From: Escherichia coli
GTDB taxonomy: Bacteria > Pseudomonadota > Gammaproteobacteria > Enterobacterales > Enterobacteriaceae
Strand: one strand, 5' to 3'
Assembly (NCBI RefSeq): GCF_050920415.1
Contig: NZ_CP169309.1
DNA: 64,000 bases
The position numbers and the translations under genes were made by a program. Positions 34,897 to 50,375 of this stretch are shown here, one piece after another. Every line of letters starts with the position of its first letter. Within the stretch, counting starts at the first letter, position 1. Under the pieces are notes generated by a model, which was not told the DNA's origin, searched no databases, and worked only from the letters and a program-made list of their open reading frames with translations.

Positions 34897-35084
34897 TATG
34901 GATTGCCTGTAAAGTTCATCGCTTTCTGCTTTCTATCATCGCAGGAGAAGACGTAAAAGCAAGCGTTTAGCGACTCTTTATGAAGTCTGAAAAATGAGGA
35001 ATTGCTGCGAGTATAACGCTTACACGTGGGGATTTATGTTTTGCTGGTAGTTTCGTGATCGGCACCTCGCGCCAGGATGGCTTT

Positions 35085-37112
35085 ATGCACTATCGCAATG
35101 TGGTTTGTTTGTTGTCTTTTTTAGTTCCGTCAGCGTGGGGATGCTCGCTCGGTGAACCTGATCATAATATTTACCAGAAACAGGGAAAAGGCGTGGTATA
35201 CCTGCGCCCTAATGAAGAGACAAATCTTTCGTTACCGGAAGTAAATTACCAGCGACTGCGTCGTTTACCTGATTTATTCATTGCTCCTGACACCCAGGAC
35301 GATGGGGAAAAAGAACCGCCGTTAAACGACCTTACCACCGATTATATTGATCAGGGCGCATGGGCCTGGTATCCAAATTATGCTTACTTTAGCGATGGCC
35401 GTTTTGTCATTTATGCGGGCAAGATTGTACAAAATCCATCTGGTTATCCACCGGTCGATGTAGCCTCGTTCCATTCATGGGGCGATTTTGCCGTCGATAA
35501 AAACAGCATTTATTACAAAGGCCAACGGACAGATGAAAATGGCGGCAAGCAACGCGTCGATGAAAAAACGCTGCGCAAAGTAGGATTAGGTAGCCGTTGG
35601 ATGCCTGATCGGCTGGGATTGGTGCTACGTGACGCGCATTTTCTTTATATCGATGGGCACCGTTTTGATAACCCAGAGAGTTTTTCCGTGATCGCGCAAA
35701 AATCCTGGGGTCAACAAGGGAAATTCGCTTCAACGTTTTTTCCCTGCATTGCCTACCCCTTTGGCCCGTGGGATATGCTTACCCGCACACGAACAAAGTT
35801 GCTGATCAATGGAGAGCAACTGGATGCCGATCCGGACAATTTTTCTGTCGTTCGCTGGATGCCCGGCACCCTGTTTAGCTGGCGTGATAAACACGGCGAG
35901 CATCGTAAAGTCATTGATCAGGTTCGTTTGGCAAGGAATGAAGATATATCCCGGCAATGTGACAACTTTACGCTGTTAGAAAAAAAGGTGTTCTGGCGCA
36001 AGGGGCCAGATTGTGAGCAGGAAGAATTACCCAGTCTCGACCCGGAGCAGTTTCACCCGATCAGTGACATCGTGGCGCAGTATCAGGACAAGTTGTATGC
36101 AATCAGTAAGACCCCCTTCGGTGAAAATCAGTTGGAGATCATCACCCTGGATAACCCGAATCTGATCATCAATAAACGTTTTAATGCAGGAAGGCATCAT
36201 GGCTATTTACTCACCCGATCAACAAATTGGGACGGACATGAGAAAGACGGTTTACAGGTGTTTGAATCCGTTGGCCCACTGATACTGCTGGACTACCGTG
36301 TGCCGAATGAAGCAGATGCACACCGTGGCAATAACCCGCATTACAAAAAATGGTTTGCTCGCGACGATCGTTACGTTTATGCATTCGATGGTGCGCAGCT
36401 TTGGCGTTACCCTACGCAATATCCCAAAGCGGCACGTATCAAAGCCGCTAAAGACGACTGGCTGAACGTCAGCCTTAGCCAGTTGGACGGTGAGATAATG
36501 AAAGATGGCTCATTTACTCCCACTGGCATCAAGCACACATCCTCTTTAAAACCCGCCAAGGCATACGAAGATGGGGACAATGAATCTTCATTTATCGTAA
36601 ATAAATCGGGAGTAGGCTGGCGAAAAGCGCTTTCACCCGACCTGCAATGGAGTGAGTGGCATTACCTGGAAGGCATTGATCCAAAAAAGTTTCATCTGAT
36701 TACCGAACGTATTGCACAGTACAAAAACCAACTCTACGTCGTCAGGCGCTCGCATTTTGGAGAAGATCGGCTCGAAATCATAGAGTTGGAGTCATCTTTG
36801 CCCATCAAAAATAAACCGATAAATACGGGCAAGGAGCGTCATTACTTTCTGCAAAGTACCCGACAAAAACAGGATGTGCAGGTATTCACCAGCAGCGGTG
36901 CGCTGATAGCAACGGAGCGCTTTGCTTATGACGATAGCTATGTCTACACCTGGATTGACGATCAGCTTTATCGCACACCCTCCCCCTGCCCAGCGAAAAC
37001 ATACGTCAGAGAAAAGAATGTCCGTGAAATTCATAACAGCGACATTATTATTCCGGTGACGGAGGAATCGTGCCGGAACGCAGCAGCAGACGGGCAAACT
37101 TTGAAGCCCTGA
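35085..37112 (+). CDS. Large secreted DKNYY-repeat family protein, 675 aa from ATG (685 from upstream GTG)
   Basis: Signal peptide MHYRNVVCLLSFLVPSAWGC; motif DKNSIYYKGQR; two internally duplicated segments (FHPISDIVAQYQDKLY...FGENQLEIITLD / FHLITERIAQYKNQLY...FGEDRLEIIELE); AGGA 9 nt before ATG 35085. Confidence 0.7.
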   Translation: MHYRNVVCLLSFLVPSAWGCSLGEPDHNIYQKQGKGVVYLRPNEETNLSLPEVNYQRLRRLPDLFIAPDTQDDGEKEPPLNDLTTDYIDQGAWAWYPNYAYFSDGRFVIYAGKIVQNPSGYPPVDVASFHSWGDFAVDKNSIYYKGQRTDENGGKQRVDEKTLRKVGLGSRWMPDRLGLVLRDAHFLYIDGHRFDNPESFSVIAQKSWGQQGKFASTFFPCIAYPFGPWDMLTRTRTKLLINGEQLDADPDNFSVVRWMPGTLFSWRDKHGEHRKVIDQVRLARNEDISRQCDNFTLLEKKVFWRKGPDCEQEELPSLDPEQFHPISDIVAQYQDKLYAISKTPFGENQLEIITLDNPNLIINKRFNAGRHHGYLLTRSTNWDGHEKDGLQVFESVGPLILLDYRVPNEADAHRGNNPHYKKWFARDDRYVYAFDGAQLWRYPTQYPKAARIKAAKDDWLNVSLSQLDGEIMKDGSFTPTGIKHTSSLKPAKAYEDGDNESSFIVNKSGVGWRKALSPDLQWSEWHYLEGIDPKKFHLITERIAQYKNQLYVVRRSHFGEDRLEIIELESSLPIKNKPINTGKERHYFLQSTRQKQDVQVFTSSGALIATERFAYDDSYVYTWIDDQLYRTPSPCPAKTYVREKNVREIHNSDIIIPVTEESCRNAAADGQTLKP

Positions 37113-42152: not shown

Positions 42153-43361
42153 ATGACGGAACAAGAAAAAACCTCCGCCGTGGTTGAAGAGACCAGGGAG
42201 GCCGTGGACACCACGTCACAACCTGTCGCAACAGAAAAAAAGAGCAAGAACAACACCGCATTGATTCTCAGCGCGGTGGCTATCGCTATTGCTCTGGCGG
42301 CGGGCGTCGGTTTGTATGGCTGGGGTAAACAACAGGCCGTCAATCAGACTGCCACCAGCGATGCCCTGGCTAACCAACTTACGGCACTGCAAAAAGCCCA
42401 GGAGAGCCAAAAAGCCGAGCTGGAAGGCATTATCAAGCAACAAGCTACGCAGCTTGAACAGGCGAATCGTCAGCAAGAAACGCTGGCAAAACAGCTGGAT
42501 GAAGTCCAACAAAAGGTCGCGACTATTTCCGGCAGCGATGCTAAAACCTGGCTGCTGGCTCAGGCTGATTTCCTGGTGAAACTCGCCGGACGGAAGCTGT
42601 GGAGCGATCAGGACGTCACGACCGCTGCAGCGTTGCTGAAAAGTGCAGATGCCAGCCTGGCGGATATGAATGACCCGAGTCTGATTACCGTTCGTCGGGC
42701 AATTACCGATGATATCGCCAGCCTTTCTGCGGTATCGCAGGTGGATTATGACGGCATCATCCTTAAGCTGAATCAGCTTTCTAATCAGGTAGATAACCTG
42801 CGTCTGGCCGATAATGACAGCGATGGTTCACCAATGGATTCCGACGGTGAAGAGCTTTCCAGTTCCCTCAGCGAATGGCGTATCAATCTACAAAAAAGCT
42901 GGCAGAACTTTATGGACAACTTCATTACGATTCGCCGTCGTGATGACACCGCCGTACCACTGTTAGCACCGAATCAGGATATCTATCTGCGCGAAAATAT
43001 TCGCTCCCGCCTGCTGGTCGCGGCACAAGCCGTACCGCGTCATCAGGAAGAGACTTATCGCCAGGCGCTGGAGAATGTCTCCACCTGGGTACGTGCTTAC
43101 TACGATACTGATGATGCCACCACCAAAGCGTTCCTCGACGAGGTGGACCAGTTAAGCCAGCAAAATATCTCGATGGATCTCCCGGAAACTCTGCAAAGCC
43201 AGGCGATGCTGGAAAAACTGATGCAGACGCGCGTGCGCAATCTGCTGGCGCAACCAGCAGCAGAGGCTAAACCTGCACCTGCACCTGCACCTGCACCTGC
43301 ACCTGCACCTGCACCTGCACCGCAAGCTGATACTCCGGCAGCCGCGCCGCAAGGAGAATAA
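42153..43361 (+). CDS. hemX: HemX membrane protein, 402 aa
   Basis: [48 protein letters not shown]...; C-terminal (PA)8 tract. Confidence 0.9.
43272..43319 (+). repeat. Perfect hexanucleotide tandem repeat (CCTGCA)x8 inside hemX, encoding (Pro-Ala)8
   Basis: Counted directly in sequence. Confidence 0.85.
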
Positions 43362-43363
43362 CC

Positions 43364-44560
43364 ATGCTAAAAGTGTTATTGCTCTTTGTGTTGCTGATTG
43401 CGGGGATCGTGGTCGGCCCGATGATTGCCGGTCATCAGGGTTACGTGCTGATCCAGACCGATACCTACAATATCGAAACCAGCGTCACGGGCCTGGCGAT
43501 CATTTTGATTCTGGCGATGGTAGTGCTGTTTGCCATTGAGTGGCTACTGCGGCGGATCTTCCGCACAGGCGCACACACCCGTGGGTGGTTTATCGGACGT
43601 AAGCGTCGCCGTGCCCGTAAGCAGACCGAACAGGCGCTGCTGAAACTAGCGGAAGGCGATTATCAGCAAGTTGAAAAGCTGATGGCGAAAAATGCCGATC
43701 ACGCTGAACAACCGGTGGTGAACTATCTGCTGGCTGCCGAAGCCGCGCAACAACGCGGTGATGAAGCACGCGCCAACCAACATCTGGAACGCGCAGCGGA
43801 GCTGGCCGGCAACGACACAATTCCGGTAGAAATCACCCGTGTACGTCTGCAACTGGCCCGTAATGAAAACCATGCAGCACGTCACGGCGTTGATAAGCTG
43901 CTGGAAGTTACGCCACGCCATCCGGAAGTATTACGTCTGGCGGAACAGGCGTATATCCGCACTGGTGCATGGAGTTCGCTGCTGGATATCATCCCATCAA
44001 TGGCAAAAGCCCACGTTGGCGATGAAGAGCATCGTGCAATGCTGGAACAACAGGCATGGATTGGCCTGATGGATCAGGCGCGTGCCGATAACGGTAGCGA
44101 AGGTTTGCGTAACTGGTGGAAAAACCAAAGCCGGAAAACGCGTCATCAGGTGGCGTTACAGGTGGCAATGGCGGAACATCTTATTGAATGTGACGATCAT
44201 GATACTGCCCAGCAAATTATCATCGACGGCCTGAAACGCCAGTATGACGATCGCCTGCTGCTGCCGATCCCGCGTCTGAAAACCAATAACCCGGAACAGC
44301 TGGAAAAAGTGCTGCGCCAACAGATCAAAAACGTGGGCGATCGCCCGTTGTTGTGGAGCACACTGGGTCAGTCGCTGATGAAGCACGGAGAATGGCAGGA
44401 AGCATCGCTCGCCTTCCGCGCAGCGCTGAAACAACGTCCGGACGCCTACGATTACGCATGGCTTGCCGACGCGCTGGACAGACTGCACAAGCCGGAAGAA
44501 GCCGCAGCGATGCGTCGCGATGGCTTGATGTTAACGTTGCAGAACAACCCGCCACAGTAG
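43364..44560 (+). CDS. hemY: HemY TPR-containing membrane protein, 398 aa
   Basis: MLKVLLLFVLLIAGIVVGPMIAGHQGYVLIQTDTYNIETSVTGLAIIL... Confidence 0.95.
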   Translation: MLKVLLLFVLLIAGIVVGPMIAGHQGYVLIQTDTYNIETSVTGLAIILILAMVVLFAIEWLLRRIFRTGAHTRGWFIGRKRRRARKQTEQALLKLAEGDYQQVEKLMAKNADHAEQPVVNYLLAAEAAQQRGDEARANQHLERAAELAGNDTIPVEITRVRLQLARNENHAARHGVDKLLEVTPRHPEVLRLAEQAYIRTGAWSSLLDIIPSMAKAHVGDEEHRAMLEQQAWIGLMDQARADNGSEGLRNWWKNQSRKTRHQVALQVAMAEHLIECDDHDTAQQIIIDGLKRQYDDRLLLPIPRLKTNNPEQLEKVLRQQIKNVGDRPLLWSTLGQSLMKHGEWQEASLAFRAALKQRPDAYDYAWLADALDRLHKPEEAAAMRRDGLMLTLQNNPPQ

Positions 44561-44609
44561 CTCTTTCTCACCCGGAGGCAAGCACCTCCGGGACCTTTCT
44601 GATATATAA

Positions 44610-44814
44610 AAAAACGCCTGCTCTTATTACGGAGCAGGCGTTAAAACAGGTCTGTATGACAACAAGTGGGTGCTTCACTCAACGTTGTGTCCATGGTGTC
44701 TGATGAGGCATAAGCGACATCTGTCAGTGGACGATAAGCACCGTAAACGGCTCTGCGTCATTCCGGAGTTTATGAGGCACTAAGGCGAACATAAGAGATG
44801 GAATGAGCATCTAC
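44610..44814 (-). ncRNA. glmZ: GlmZ small regulatory RNA, including its intrinsic terminator
   Basis: Minus-strand sequence GTAGATGCTCATTCCATCTCTTATGTTCGCC...CAGACCTGTTTTAACGCCTGCTCCGTAATAAGAGCAGGCGTTTTTTT matches my recollection of GlmZ; hemY-aslA spacer is its known location. Confidence 0.8.
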
Positions 44815-45238
44815 TCGTTTATTATGCCACAGAGAACCGTGAAATAACATCCCTTAACACTTGTTATGAGATAATTCTGTAATCCTCTTTGCTTCCTGAG
44901 TAATAACTTCCTGAGTGAATATTTCTCCTGCGCACGATTCTACACATATATATAATGAATAATAAAAGTCATTCAATTAATAACATATATATTAATTGCC
45001 GTTAAAACTAAAAACAGCATCAATAATCAACGCGATATAACATCACCGCCTTACATATCACCTGCGCCAGAGGTAGGATTGAAAACGCTCTCCTGATTTT
45101 CCAATTCATTATCTGTATAAATAAATAATTTATTTTCATCACTATTATTTATGCAATCATCCTGTCAGGGAGAGGGATCTCAATTATCAATGCTTAATTA
45201 CGTCAACATTTTGACGACATGAAACCGGAGCATTTTGC

Positions 45239-46894
45239 ATGGAATTTTCGTTTTCACCCAAACTTCTTGTTGTGGCTGTCGCCGCCGCTCTTCCACTCAT
45301 GGCCAGCGCAGCAGATACCCCGTCAACCGCCACCGCACGCAAAGGCTTTGCCGGATACGATCACCCAAACCAGTATCTGGTTAAACCGGCGACCACTATT
45401 GCCGACAACATGATGCCGGTGATGCAGCATCCTGCACAAGACAAAGAAACCCAGCAGAAGCTGGCAGAACTTGAGAAAAAAACCGGTAAGAAACCGAACG
45501 TGGTTGTTTTCTTGCTGGATGATGTGGGCTGGATGGATGTTGGCTTTAACGGCGGTGGCGTGGCGGTGGGTAACCCTACACCAGATATCGACGCCGTTGC
45601 CAGCCAGGGGCTGATTTTAACTTCGGCGTATTCTCAACCGAGTTCTTCCCCAACCCGCGCCACGATTCTCACCGGACAATACTCCATCCACCACGGCATT
45701 CTGATGCCGCCAATGTACGGGCAGCCGGGCGGTCTGCAAGGGTTAACCACGCTGCCACAGTTGCTGCACGATCAGGGCTACGTCACCCAGGCTATCGGGA
45801 AATGGCATATGGGGGAAAACAAAGAGTCGCAGCCGCAGAACGTTGGCTTTGATGATTTCCGCGGCTTTAACTCGGTATCTGATATGTATACCGAATGGCG
45901 TGATGTTCATGTCAACCCGGAAGTCGCCCTGAGCCCGGATCGTTCTGAATACATCCAAAAACTGCCGTTCAGCAAAGATGACGTTCATGCCGTGCGCGGC
46001 GGTGAACAGGAAGCCATTGCCGACATTACGCCGAAATATATGGAAGATCTGGATCAACGCTGGATGGAATATGGCGTTAAGTTCCTCGACAAGATGGCAA
46101 AGAGCGATAAGCCATTCTTCCTCTACTATGGCACTCGCGGCTGTCACTTCGATAACTACCCGAACGCCAAATATGCGGGTAGCTCTCCGGCGCGCACCTC
46201 TTACGGCGACTGCATGGTGGAGATGAACGATATCTTCGCCAATCTGTATAAAGCACTGGAGAAAAACGGTCAGCTTGATAACACGCTGATTGTGTTCACC
46301 TCTGATAACGGTCCGGAAGCTGAAGTTCCGCCGCACGGTCGCACGCCGTTCCGCGGTGCGAAAGGTTCTACATGGGAAGGCGGCGTTCGTGTGCCAACCT
46401 TCGTTTACTGGAAAGGGATGATCCAACCGCGTAAATCTGACGGTATTGTCGATCTGGCGGATCTCTTCCCTACGGCGCTGGATCTGGCAGGACATCCTGG
46501 AGCGAAAGTGGCGAATTTAGTGCCGAAAACCACCTTTATTGATGGTGTGGACCAGACATCTTTCTTCCTGGGAACAAATGGTCAGTCTAACCGTAAGGCC
46601 GAGCACTACTTCCTCAACGGCAAACTTTCTGCTGTGCGTATGGATGAGTTTAAATATCACGTACTCATCCAACAGCCATACGCTTATACCCAGAGCGGGT
46701 ATCAGGGTGGATTCACCGGCACAGTAATGCAAACGGCGGGATCGTCGGTGTTTAACCTGTACACCGATCCGCAGGAAAGCGACTCTATCGGCGTGCGCCA
46801 TATCCCAATGGGTGTACCGCTACAGACCGAAATGCACGCGTATATGGAGATCCTGAAAAAATATCCGCCGCGCGCGCAGATTAAATCTGATTAA
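45239..46894 (+). CDS. aslA: AslA arylsulfatase-family protein, 551 aa
   Basis: [28 protein letters not shown]...; sulfatase motif [15 protein letters not shown]. Confidence 0.9.
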
Positions 46895-46930
46895 GCCGGC
46901 GCTATCGCTACATCGGGCCACACTGACCTT

Positions 46931-47034
46931 GCCGGATGCGGCGTGAACGCCTTATCCGGCCTACAAGCCTTGCAAATTCAATAAATTGCAGCGTCCTGTA
47001 GGCCGGATAAGATGCGTCAGCATCGCATCCGGCA
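46931..47034. repeat. REP pair (BIME) between convergent aslA and aslB
   Basis: gccggatgcggcgtgaacgccttatccggcctac ... gtaggccggataagatgcgtcagcatcgcatccggca. Confidence 0.8.
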
Positions 47035-47068
47035 ATCAACCGCAGGCGGCCACAAAATGGCTGCTTTT

Positions 47069-48304
47069 TTACTTATTCACCACCATCAAATGCGCCTGCA
47101 TAATGTCGCTGGCCGGGCGACCGTGCGCCAGCAAATCAGCCATTGCTTTAAGATATGGCGGTAGATAGCGGAAATAACGCTGATACCCGGCACACAAATA
47201 ATTCAGCCCCGGCTTACCGCTGGCATCGAGCATAAAGCGATGTTTCGGGCAGCCTCCCCAACATGCTTTTAACACGTTACAACTGCGACACTGCGCCGGT
47301 AACAGCTTAAATTTATCTTCTCCAAACACCTGCTGCTGCGGGGAATCTACCATTTCTGCAATTGTTTGCTGAAGCATATTCCCCAGTCGATATTGCGGAT
47401 AAACATAGTGATCGCAGGCGTAAACGTCGCCGTTGTGTTCGACAATCACCGAGCGTCCACAAGTCGGCTGATGATGGCAAACCGCACCCGGCGCACCGAC
47501 AAAATTGGCAAACGCCCATTCGATATTCATCACGAAAATCTTGCCGACGTCACGTTTGATCCAGTGGTCAAAAATTGCCACCAGAAACTCACCGAACTCA
47601 TCGGGGCGCACCGACCATTCTGTCAGTTCCCCCTGAATATCACCAGGCGCATGTAATTTCAGTCCATTGCGGGCAGCTGTTTCATCAGCCAGGCGCTCCA
47701 CCACCGGAATAAACTGGATAAACTCAACGCCTGCATTGCACAAAAAATCATAAACCTGTAACGGTTGCTGCGCGCTGGTGCGGTTGACACAGACCAGCAC
47801 GTTATAGTCGACATGATGTTTTTGCAGGAGCGTCAGGGCACGCATCACCAGCTTATGCGTGGGTCTGCCACCTTTGGTCACGCGATAATGATTGTGGATC
47901 TCAGCCGGACCGTCCAGCGATAACCCAACCAGAAAATGATTTTCTGCCAGAAATGCACACCATTCATCATCGAGCAGCACACCGTTAGTCTGAAAGCTGT
48001 TACTTATCTTCCTGCCAGCACCATATTTCGCCTGTAGCGCCACGGCACGTCGGTAAAAATCCAGCCCGAGTAACGTTGGTTCGCCGCCCTGCCAGGTAAA
48101 AGCCACTTCGTTTTGGGGTTCGCTGGCGGCGATATAGTGACGGACATACGCTTCCAGCGTGTCATCGTCCATATGCGCAACTGGCTTTTCGCGGTAAAGG
48201 GATTGTTTTTCGAGATAAAAACAGTAGTCACAGTTCAGATTACAATCGGAACCGCTTGGTTTCGCCATCACATGAAAAGCACGCGTTGGAACCTGTTGCA
48301 GCAT
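47069..48304 (-). CDS. aslB: AslB anaerobic sulfatase-maturating radical-SAM enzyme, 411 aa
   Basis: Track frame to 48334; start set at MLQQVPTRAFHVMAKPSGSDCNLNCDYCFY... (CxxxCxxC radical-SAM motif). Confidence 0.9.
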   Translation of the reverse strand: MLQQVPTRAFHVMAKPSGSDCNLNCDYCFYLEKQSLYREKPVAHMDDDTLEAYVRHYIAASEPQNEVAFTWQGGEPTLLGLDFYRRAVALQAKYGAGRKISNSFQTNGVLLDDEWCAFLAENHFLVGLSLDGPAEIHNHYRVTKGGRPTHKLVMRALTLLQKHHVDYNVLVCVNRTSAQQPLQVYDFLCNAGVEFIQFIPVVERLADETAARNGLKLHAPGDIQGELTEWSVRPDEFGEFLVAIFDHWIKRDVGKIFVMNIEWAFANFVGAPGAVCHHQPTCGRSVIVEHNGDVYACDHYVYPQYRLGNMLQQTIAEMVDSPQQQVFGEDKFKLLPAQCRSCNVLKACWGGCPKHRFMLDASGKPGLNYLCAGYQRYFRYLPPYLKAMADLLAHGRPASDIMQAHLMVVNK

Positions 48305-48413
48305 GGTCGCTCCTTGCCCGAAGTCATCCTTCAATACGTTAAGGGCGAAATCATACCGTGTAGCAATGAGTGATTACGGGCGTTTATTGCGAAGGGAGAG
48401 TGATGAAATGCAC

Positions 48414-48444
48414 AGAAAACAAAAAACCCCGCCGAAGCGGGGTT
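48414..48444 (-). terminator. Intrinsic terminator of the tRNA operon
   Basis: CCCCGC-cgaa-GCGGGG hairpin with A-run on plus strand (U-run on minus). Confidence 0.75.
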
Positions 48445-48450
48445 CAAAAT

Positions 48451-48527
48451 TGGTCGGCGAGAGAGGATTCGAACCTCCGACCCACTGGTCCCAAACCAGT
48501 TGCGCTACCAAGCTGCGCTACTCGCCG
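48451..48527 (-). tRNA. proM: tRNA-Pro (UGG)
   Basis: Minus strand CGGCGAGTAGCGCAGCTTGGTAGCGCAACTGGTTTGGGACCAGTGGGTCGGAGGTTCGAATCCTCTCTCGCCGACCA. Confidence 0.9.
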
Positions 48528-48569
48528 AAATACTGCTTTTTGAATTTTTAGTTCAATTCTTTAAAGTCG

Positions 48570-48656
48570 TGGTGCGAGGGGGGGGACTTGAACCCCCACG
48601 TCCGTAAGGACACTAACACCTGAAGCTAGCGCGTCTACCAATTCCGCCACCTTCGC
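48570..48656 (-). tRNA. leuT: tRNA-Leu (CAG)
   Basis: Minus strand GCGAAGGTGGCGGAATTGGTAGACGCGCTAGCTTCAGGTGTTAGTGTCCTTACGGACGTGGGGGTTCAAGTCCCCCCCCTCGCACCA. Confidence 0.9.
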
Positions 48657-48676
48657 ATTGTCACAACTTCTAATAA

Positions 48677-48753
48677 TGGGGTGGCTAATGGGATTCGAAC
48701 CCACGACAACTGGAATCACAATCCAGGGCTCTACCAACTGAGCTATAGCCACC
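48677..48753 (-). tRNA. hisR: tRNA-His (GUG)
   Basis: Minus strand GGTGGCTATAGCTCAGTTGGTAGAGCCCTGGATTGTGATTCCAGTTGTCGTGGGTTCGAATCCCATTAGCCACCCCA, with extra 5' G. Confidence 0.9.
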
Positions 48754-48810
48754 ACTACAAATCTTGTTACGCGGTATTACTACCACCGCAGCTCAAGCGC
48801 CGGGACTAAA

Positions 48811-48887
<77 letters not shown>

Positions 48888-48989
48888 TTAGCGCCGTTGC
48901 GGGGGTGGATAATACGGACTTCCCACCCCTCTGTCTAGTCCCTTTTTAAATAAATTGCGCGTTTGGTTACGGTTTGTGCGTTTTGCTGC

Positions 48990-50375
48990 TTATTCCTCCA
49001 GTTTATGCGCTTTACCGTGGCGATTAAGCCCAAAAACTTTATAAATTGCCGTCACCGCCAGCATAAAGATGATGCCGACAAACAGCGACATACGCGTATC
49101 TTCATTAAAGTACATGCCGATCAAAACGCAAATCAGGAATGCCATTGTTACGTAGTTGGCCCACGGGAACAGGATTGAGCGGAACGGATGGCTGGCAATC
49201 GCCGCTTTATGCGCACGACGAAAACGCAGCTGGCTTATCAATATCACAAACCATGGCACCATCCCCGGAAGCACGCTGGCACTGTAGACATAGACAAACA
49301 CACGCTGTGGATTGGGAATGATGTAGTTCAGGCATGAGCCAATTAACAGAATAGCAATTGATACCGCCACGCCTGCAACCGGAACACCTTGACGGGAAAC
49401 TTTCGCCATTGCCGCCGGTAACTGACGGTTTTTCGCCAGTGCGTAGAGCATACGTCCACAACTGTACATGCCGCTGTTACAGCCAGAGAGCGCAGCCGTC
49501 AGTACCACAAAGTTGATAATACCCGCCGCTGCGGTAATGCCGATTTTGGCGAAAGTCAGTACGAACGGGCTGCCGTTACTGCCTATTTCATTCCACGGGA
49601 AGATGGTGACGATAACGAAAATCGCGCCTACGTAGAAAATCAGGATACGCCACAACACCTTGCCTACGGCACTGCGCAGCGTCACCTGCGGATTCTTCGC
49701 TTCACCGGCAGTAATGCCAATCAGCTCCACGCCCTGGTAGGACGCCACCACAATACACAATGCGGTCAGGAACCCTTTCCAGCCACCCGCAAAGAAACCG
49801 CCATGCTCTGTGAGATTGCTAAAACCAATCGACTGCCCGCCATTGCCAAAACCAAAGAAAATTACGCCCAGGCCAATGACAATCATCACGATAATCGTGG
49901 TGACTTTGATCATCGCGAACCAGAACTCGATTTCGCCGTACAACCGCACTGCCGCCAGATTCGCCAACGCCACCAGCGCCACCGCGATCAATGCGGGTAT
50001 CCACTGCGCCATCTCCGGGAACCAGAACTGGACATAAACGCCAATGGCGGTGATTTCTGAGATCCCCACCGCCATCCACATAAACCAGTAAGACCAGGCG
50101 GTGAGATAGCCAAAAAACGGGCTCATATAACGATGCGCATAAACGGCGAACGAACCGGTAACCGGTTCGAGGAACAACATTTCGCCCATTGAACGCATGA
50201 TGAAAAAGACGAACAGCCCGGCGATGATATAGGCCAACAATACGGATGGCCCGGCCCATTTCAGGGTACTGGCGGCCCCCATAAACAGGCCGACGCCAAT
50301 GGTGCCCCCCAGGGCGATGAGTTCGATATGTCGAGCTTCCAGCCCACGCTGTAGCTCTGGTTTGTTATCTGCCAT
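48990..50375 (-). CDS. yifK: YifK APC-family amino-acid permease, 461 aa
   Basis: [36 protein letters not shown]... Confidence 0.9.

Follow-up and report, generated by a model that had tools for sequence, protein, structure and literature searches.

A glmZ small RNA locus between hemY and aslA in an Escherichia coli genome

The small RNA (sRNA) GlmZ has been under study since 2001, and its mechanism has been worked out down to cryo-EM structures. GlmS, whose synthesis it controls, is glucosamine-6-phosphate synthase, a cell-envelope enzyme. The closest described system is GlmZ of E. coli K-12 (also SraJ or RyiA; b4456; Rfam family RF00083), which is made as a primary transcript of 207 nt and has a processed form of about 151 nt (PMC4152352). 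In K-12, the central stem-loop is a recognition module for RapZ and directs RNase E cleavage just downstream (PMC4737144); the single-stranded region contains the RNase E processing site, at about nt 151, and has a role with Hfq (PMC4152352, PMC4737144), and the oligo-U tail is a determinant for Hfq (PMC4737144). The published target on glmS spans -41 to -19 and pairs with a 15-nt site in the single-stranded region, an interaction verified by compensatory mutations (PMC4152352). As a rule of synteny, glmZ is linked to hemCDXY on the opposite strand, and in E. coli it lies between hemY and aslA (PMC3045617, PMC4152352).

Two further systems bear on the comparison. GlmY (Tke1/SroF; Rfam clan CL00011) is homologous to GlmZ, has the same architecture of stem-loop 1 and stem-loop 2, binds RapZ, and acts in the same GlmS circuit (PMC4152352). 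Unlike GlmZ, it has neither a glmS pairing site nor an accessible oligo-U tail. The glmZ genes of Salmonella and Yersinia encode the same RNA family and share the hemCDXY linkage (PMC3045617); there, expression depends on sigma-54 and GlrR, from promoters with a -24/-12 element for sigma-54, three copies of the GlrR box (TGTCN10GACA), and sites for IHF (PMC3045617). For the K-12 gene, three bases of the -35 element match TTGACA, mutations in the -35 or -10 element abolish expression, and a fragment from -40 to +32 is sufficient for expression (PMC3045617).

Identity and conservation of the locus

The window analyzed here is a stretch of 64,000 nucleotides from E. coli contig NZ_CP169309.1 (assembly GCF_050920415.1). 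An earlier note, made from the letters of this DNA, had read the minus-strand sequence upstream of a hairpin after hemY as GlmZ and had named the lack of a covariance-model match as what would speak against it. A search with Rfam 15 at gathering thresholds (60 for RF00083) returned a GlmZ_SraJ match at 44608-44814 on the minus strand with a score of 218.4 bits (E = 3.4e-56), 158 bits above the threshold, covering model positions 1 to 214 of 214, with no non-canonical pairs flagged in the Rfam alignment. In clan competition, GlmZ was kept and a lower-scoring overlapping match of the GlmY family from the same clan was dropped. Read from 44814 to 44608, the minus strand starts with GUAGAUGCUCAUUCC and ends in a terminator hairpin followed by U-rich sequence; this places the 207-nt primary transcript at 44608..44814, with +1 at 44814 and the last U at 44608. 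The earlier coordinates, 44610-44814, were correct to within 2 nt and left off 2 nt of the U-tail. All 207 of these nucleotides are identical to the K-12 glmZ (b4456) locus, and the 5' ends agree: the annotated K-12 start, 3986432, corresponds to window position 44814, which is also the start of the Rfam match.

The neighbors were assigned from the open reading frame list and from the annotation of NZ_CP169399.1 (strain MFDS1022581), a sequence 100% identical to the window over 43283-50000 only; further to the left, the lengths of the two differ. The convergent neighbor is hemY (43364..44560, plus strand; stop codon 44558-44560), whose 3' end lies 47 nt from the 3' end of glmZ, and the divergent neighbor is aslA (45239..46894, plus strand), whose start codon is 424 nt upstream of the glmZ +1. 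The gene thus stands beside the hemCDXY cluster on the opposite strand, between hemY and aslA, as the synteny of GlmZ_SraJ has it.

To the K-12 MG1655 chromosome, the whole hemY-aslA spacer aligns without gaps. Differences are confined to the surroundings of glmZ: the upstream spacer from -424 to -41 has 25 differences in 384 nt (93.5% identity), the core promoter from -40 to -1 has 2 in 40 (at -26 and -23), the RNA itself has 0, and the 47 nt downstream of it, up to the hemY stop, have 5 (89.4% identity). Among complete E. coli genomes, the 207 nt are present at 99% identity or more in 5424 of 5426, with a median of one copy per genome; when the query was extended with flanks to 1001 nt, only 15 genomes reached at least 99% identity and 5353 fell between 95 and 99%. 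Since the RNA is held at this level in nearly every genome and its flanks are roughly 6 to 10% off K-12, glmZ stays constant while its surroundings drift, and purifying selection on the RNA is visible across the 5424 genomes.

On every sequence-level feature by which GlmZ is recognized, namely model score, synteny and orientation, glmS pairing site, terminator with oligo-U tail, and promoter type, the locus agrees with GlmZ. With K-12 GlmZ it shares the 207-nt sequence, 5' end, neighbors, orientation, -10 box, terminator, and glmS pairing site, and we found no evidence in this analysis contrary to this identity. We conclude that the hemY-aslA spacer almost certainly contains the E. coli glmZ gene, encoding the small RNA that activates glmS. 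This copy is an already known gene, and finding it here is ordinary.

Terminator, promoter, and convergent transcription

The anatomy of the RNA was taken from the covariance-model structure in place of a single-sequence minimum free energy (MFE) fold. On the minus strand, stem-loop 1 occupies nt 1-65 (44750..44814) and is mostly recovered in the MFE fold, the central stem-loop 2 occupies nt 73-146 (44669..44742), the single-stranded region occupies nt 147-172 (44643..44668), and the intrinsic terminator, consisting of stem-loop 3 (nt 173-202, 44642..44613) and the oligo-U tail, occupies 44608..44642, as placed by the terminator scan and the folds. The MFE fold (z = -3.3) recovers stem-loop 1 and the terminator, and the central stem-loop only in part. 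The mean probability of being unpaired is 0.56 for nt 150-169 versus 0.41 for nt 1-149. Transferred to the window, the K-12 processing site at about nt 151 falls at about 44664, and the single-stranded region at 44643..44668 contains U-U dinucleotides expected to serve Hfq.

The terminator hairpin (44642..44613, minus strand) was found by the terminator scan with 11 pairs, 7 of them G-C, a loop of 8, and the tail TTTTTATATA. Its letters on the minus strand are AACGCCUGCUC-CGUAAUAA-GAGCAGGCGUU, then U-rich sequence, so that glmZ ends, as GlmZ_SraJ genes do, in a Rho-independent terminator with a U7 oligo-U tail. On the plus strand, seven A residues precede the hairpin at 44613-44642 and UUAAAACAGG follows it; because the A-run precedes and no U-run but UUAAAACAGG follows, the hairpin is not an intrinsic terminator on the plus strand, and the scan found no plus-strand terminators in 44400-45300. 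The placement of the U-run on the minus strand in the earlier note is thereby confirmed, from the letters on both sides of the hairpin as well as from the minus-strand scan match. Its phrase "the hairpin after hemY" described this distal hairpin correctly, but it was ambiguous and overlooked a hairpin of hemY's own.

That second G+C-rich hairpin, separate from glmZ, was seen by folding at 44571..44592 on the plus strand. It reads CCCGGAGG-CAAGCA-CCUCCGGG (8 pairs, -16.9 kcal/mol, z = -2.7), begins 10 nt past the hemY stop, and has a stem identical to that in K-12. Its plus-strand tail, ACCUUUCU, has 4 U in 8 and is below the threshold of the terminator scan. From its sequence and position, it is a probable hemCDXY terminator or 3' stabilizer, and it is likelier than the glmZ terminator hairpin to form the end of hemCDXY. 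Because only 47 nt separate the hemY stop from the glmZ 3' end and the U-tail of the hemY-proximal hairpin is poor, read-through from hemCDXY could conceivably yield antisense RNA covering the terminator and the pairing region of GlmZ; we regard this as quite improbable. If true, GlmS control would be tied to transcription of the haem pathway, or transcriptional interference would result.

The core promoter was read from the sequence at 44815..44854 (minus strand), corresponding to -40 to -1, and is identical to K-12 at 38 of 40 positions. The -10 box is CATAAT at 44826..44821 (-12 to -7), preceded by TG at 44829-44828 (-15/-14) in an extended -10 arrangement. The weak -35 is likely ATGTTA at 44850..44845, which matches 3 of 6 consensus positions at a spacer of 18 nt; this best candidate agrees with the three matching bases described for K-12 (PMC3045617). 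Both differences from K-12, at 44840 (-26) and 44837 (-23), fall in the spacer. The glmZ promoter was missed by a simple sigma-70 scan, since the 3/6 match of the -35 is below the scan threshold. We nevertheless assign the promoter here because the TG-n-CATAAT motif is visible, the sequence is that of K-12 but for these two positions, and the K-12 elements have been defined by mutational analysis (PMC3045617).

Unlike the Salmonella and Yersinia genes, the upstream spacer (44815-45238) holds no GlrR box (TGTCN10GACA, at most 1 mismatch) and no sigma-54 match near the promoter at up to 2 mismatches. The sole sigma-54-like match in 44815-45238, at 45153-45167, has 2 mismatches and lies about 340 nt upstream of +1; across the window, counts of sigma-54-like patterns are at or below chance. 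Because the GlrR box and a promoter-proximal sigma-54 match are both absent, the glmZ promoter here is, judged by its sequence, of the Escherichia/Klebsiella type, that is, sigma-70 only and constitutive.

Predicted pairing with glmS and alternative readings

As glmS itself lies outside the window, we used the glmS leaders of K-12 and of the near-identical strain MFDS1022581. In the latter (NZ_CP169399.1), glmU and glmS are separated by a 161-nt spacer whose final 46 nt, up to the AUG, match K-12 exactly. The duplex test was limited to the segment that is single stranded according to the Rfam structure and the literature. Against the glmS leader, RNAduplex gave -19.2 kcal/mol for this segment, and 6 of 2000 shuffles of the segment reached this value (z = -3.5); for the corresponding GlmY segment, the negative control, it was -6.9 kcal/mol. 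The pairing site (44646..44665, minus strand) consists of two blocks with 15 base pairs in all: nt 150-157, UUGUUGUC (44665..44658), pairs with glmS -29 to -22, and nt 163-169, GACCUGU (44652..44646), pairs with glmS -40 to -34. The computed pairing (glmS -40 to -22, 15 bp) reproduces the published interaction (PMC4152352).

Two other duplex calculations were set aside or carry little information. A duplex between full-length GlmZ and the leader, at -46.7 kcal/mol, contained giant interior loops and was rejected as meaningless. Truncated GlmZ (nt 1-149) against the leader gave -21.2 kcal/mol, a value that is not discriminating, as the duplex calculation ignores the intramolecular stem-loops. 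Folded alone, the glmS leader has -35 to -28 paired onto the region around the ribosome-binding site, a structure that GlmZ pairing would open.

On the model worked out for GlmZ (PMC4152352, PMC4737144, PMC7430671, PMC7073468, PMC9841335), the sigma-70 promoter would constitutively produce a 207-nt RNA from the strand opposite hemY and aslA, and Hfq would bind its U-tail and single-stranded region. Together with Hfq, the full-length RNA would pair through nt 150-169 with the glmS leader at -40 to -22, occupying the left arm of the hairpin that hides the glmS ribosome-binding site, so that GlmS would be translated and its mRNA stabilized. When glucosamine-6-phosphate is plentiful, the adaptor RapZ would bind the central stem-loop and present GlmZ to RNase E, whose cut at about nt 151 (about window 44664) would fall inside the pairing site and leave GlmZ inactive; when the metabolite is scarce, the paralogue GlmY would act as a decoy that titrates RapZ. 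In the present strain, expression, binding by Hfq and RapZ, cleavage by RNase E, and the physiological feedback are all expected from the identity of the RNA to that of K-12 and from the literature. The transcript of about 207 nt would likewise be processed to about 151 nt by RNase E and RapZ, given 100% identity to the K-12 RNA (PMC4152352, PMC4737144, PMC7430671), and from the identity of the sRNA and of the target site in a close relative we infer that glmS would be activated in vivo.

As GlmY and GlmZ are members of a single Rfam clan (CL00011), with the same overall architecture and 76% column identity, we asked whether the RNA might be the paralogue, a RapZ decoy, in place of the base-pairing activator. 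This possibility is vanishingly small. GlmZ is the best model in clan competition, the 100% identity is to K-12 glmZ and not to glmY, and the locus adjoins hemCDXY and does not lie between glrK and purL. The features that identify GlmY_tke1 (best model in the clan, position between glrK and purL, and a short single-stranded region lacking a glmS site) are all missing here; the single-stranded region is longer and contains the glmS site (-19.2 versus -6.9 kcal/mol), and the terminator is long with a U7 tail, and GlmY lacks both. Sequence identity and the pairing-site test together refute the GlmY identity.

On another view, the spacer has no gene of its own, and the hairpin at 44613-44642 simply ends hemCDXY or acts as a bidirectional terminator. 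The hairpin does lie 53 nt past the hemY stop, and a perfect G+C-rich hairpin can hinder transcription arriving from either direction, but its U-run is on the minus strand only, the plus strand having an A-run before it and no U-run after, and hemY has a nearer hairpin at 44571-44592. The roughly 170 nt upstream of it match a structured-RNA model (218 bits) and are invariant across the species, which a plain terminator leaves unexplained; we consider this reading very unlikely. A secondary role of the hairpin in stopping read-through from hemCDXY would add to glmZ, not replace it. Just as unlikely is a glmZ gene with an intact sequence that has fallen silent or been rewired in this lineage, for instance through the promoter-spacer changes or because partner genes were lost. 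Such a view could draw on the two differences from K-12 at -26 and -23 and on the location of the partner genes glmS, glmY, rapZ, and hfq outside the window. Both substitutions, however, are spacer changes that leave the two hexamers (-35 and -10) and the TG motif untouched, the target site is intact in the glmUS of a near-identical strain, and purifying selection on the RNA is visible across 5424 genomes. On these three grounds, we rejected a silent relic and retain a functional glmZ gene as the reading of the spacer.

Other features of the window and annotation of the spacer

Several features elsewhere in the window are recorded here as observations in their own right. At 671-922 on the minus strand, Rfam RF02757 ("Erse small RNA") matches at full length with 308.6 bits against a gathering score of 138, ending on UGA; the match lies within the 3' end of a 216-aa minus-strand open reading frame (671-1321), just downstream of a 251-aa frame that corresponds to ubiE. 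It is probably the reported EsrE RNA within ubiJ/yigP, and may be either an RNA in its own right or simply conserved coding sequence. The 3' part of hemX (42153-43361) contains, at 43271-43321 on the plus strand, a perfect hexanucleotide tandem repeat of ACCTGC in 8.5 copies, which is in frame, variable in copy number, and encodes an Ala/Pro-rich stretch; strain MFDS1022581 has two units fewer (a 12-nt offset), and its HemX is 398 aa versus 402 aa in the window.

A 685-aa open reading frame (35055-37112, plus strand) separates lptM from cyaY, which in K-12 are only 462 nt apart. It is annotated as a hypothetical protein in the related strain, and no Pfam domain scored above cutoff, the sole match being a sub-threshold DKNYY that scored 18.2 bits (cutoff 25). 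This accessory gene, with no assigned function, has been inserted in a conserved core region. Four consecutive tRNA genes (Pro, Leu, His, and Arg from low to high coordinates, named after the related strain) lie at 48454-48887 on the minus strand between aslB and thrP, an ordinary cluster. Regions of note in the related strain are NZ_CP169399.1 2460-7899 and 10341-13058: its rmuC-udp interval carries an IclR regulator, a 2-dehydro-3-deoxygalactonate kinase and aldolase, and a TctABC-type transporter, and by ysgA there is a degraded patch with a tssD pseudogene, an IS2, and a truncated HNH endonuclease. Between ubiE and hemY, NZ_CP169399.1 is longer than the window by about 1.3 kb, which would fit a window that lacks the IS2.

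The statement in the earlier note that an annotation limited to open reading frames would leave the spacer empty holds for the RefSeq/PGAP records examined. The PGAP annotation of the near-identical strain (NZ_CP169399.1) lists hemY and aslA only, with no feature in the spacer, and in all 8 of the E. coli genomes sampled across the ranking the RefSeq/PGAP features under the 207-nt match were "none." Among the records examined, glmZ is named only in the curated K-12 record (NC_000913.3), where the ncRNA glmZ runs from 3986432 to 3986603, a length of 172 nt that stops before the terminator hairpin. Set against the 207-nt transcript of the Rfam model and of the literature (PMC4152352), the 172-nt feature is a small inconsistency of the reference annotation.

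As a discovery, the locus carries little weight, GlmZ being long known. The earlier note had recognized a known sRNA from raw sequence, with coordinates within 2 nt. The practical point is one of annotation, in that the spacer looks empty in the RefSeq/PGAP records examined even though it holds a regulator of cell-envelope precursor synthesis.
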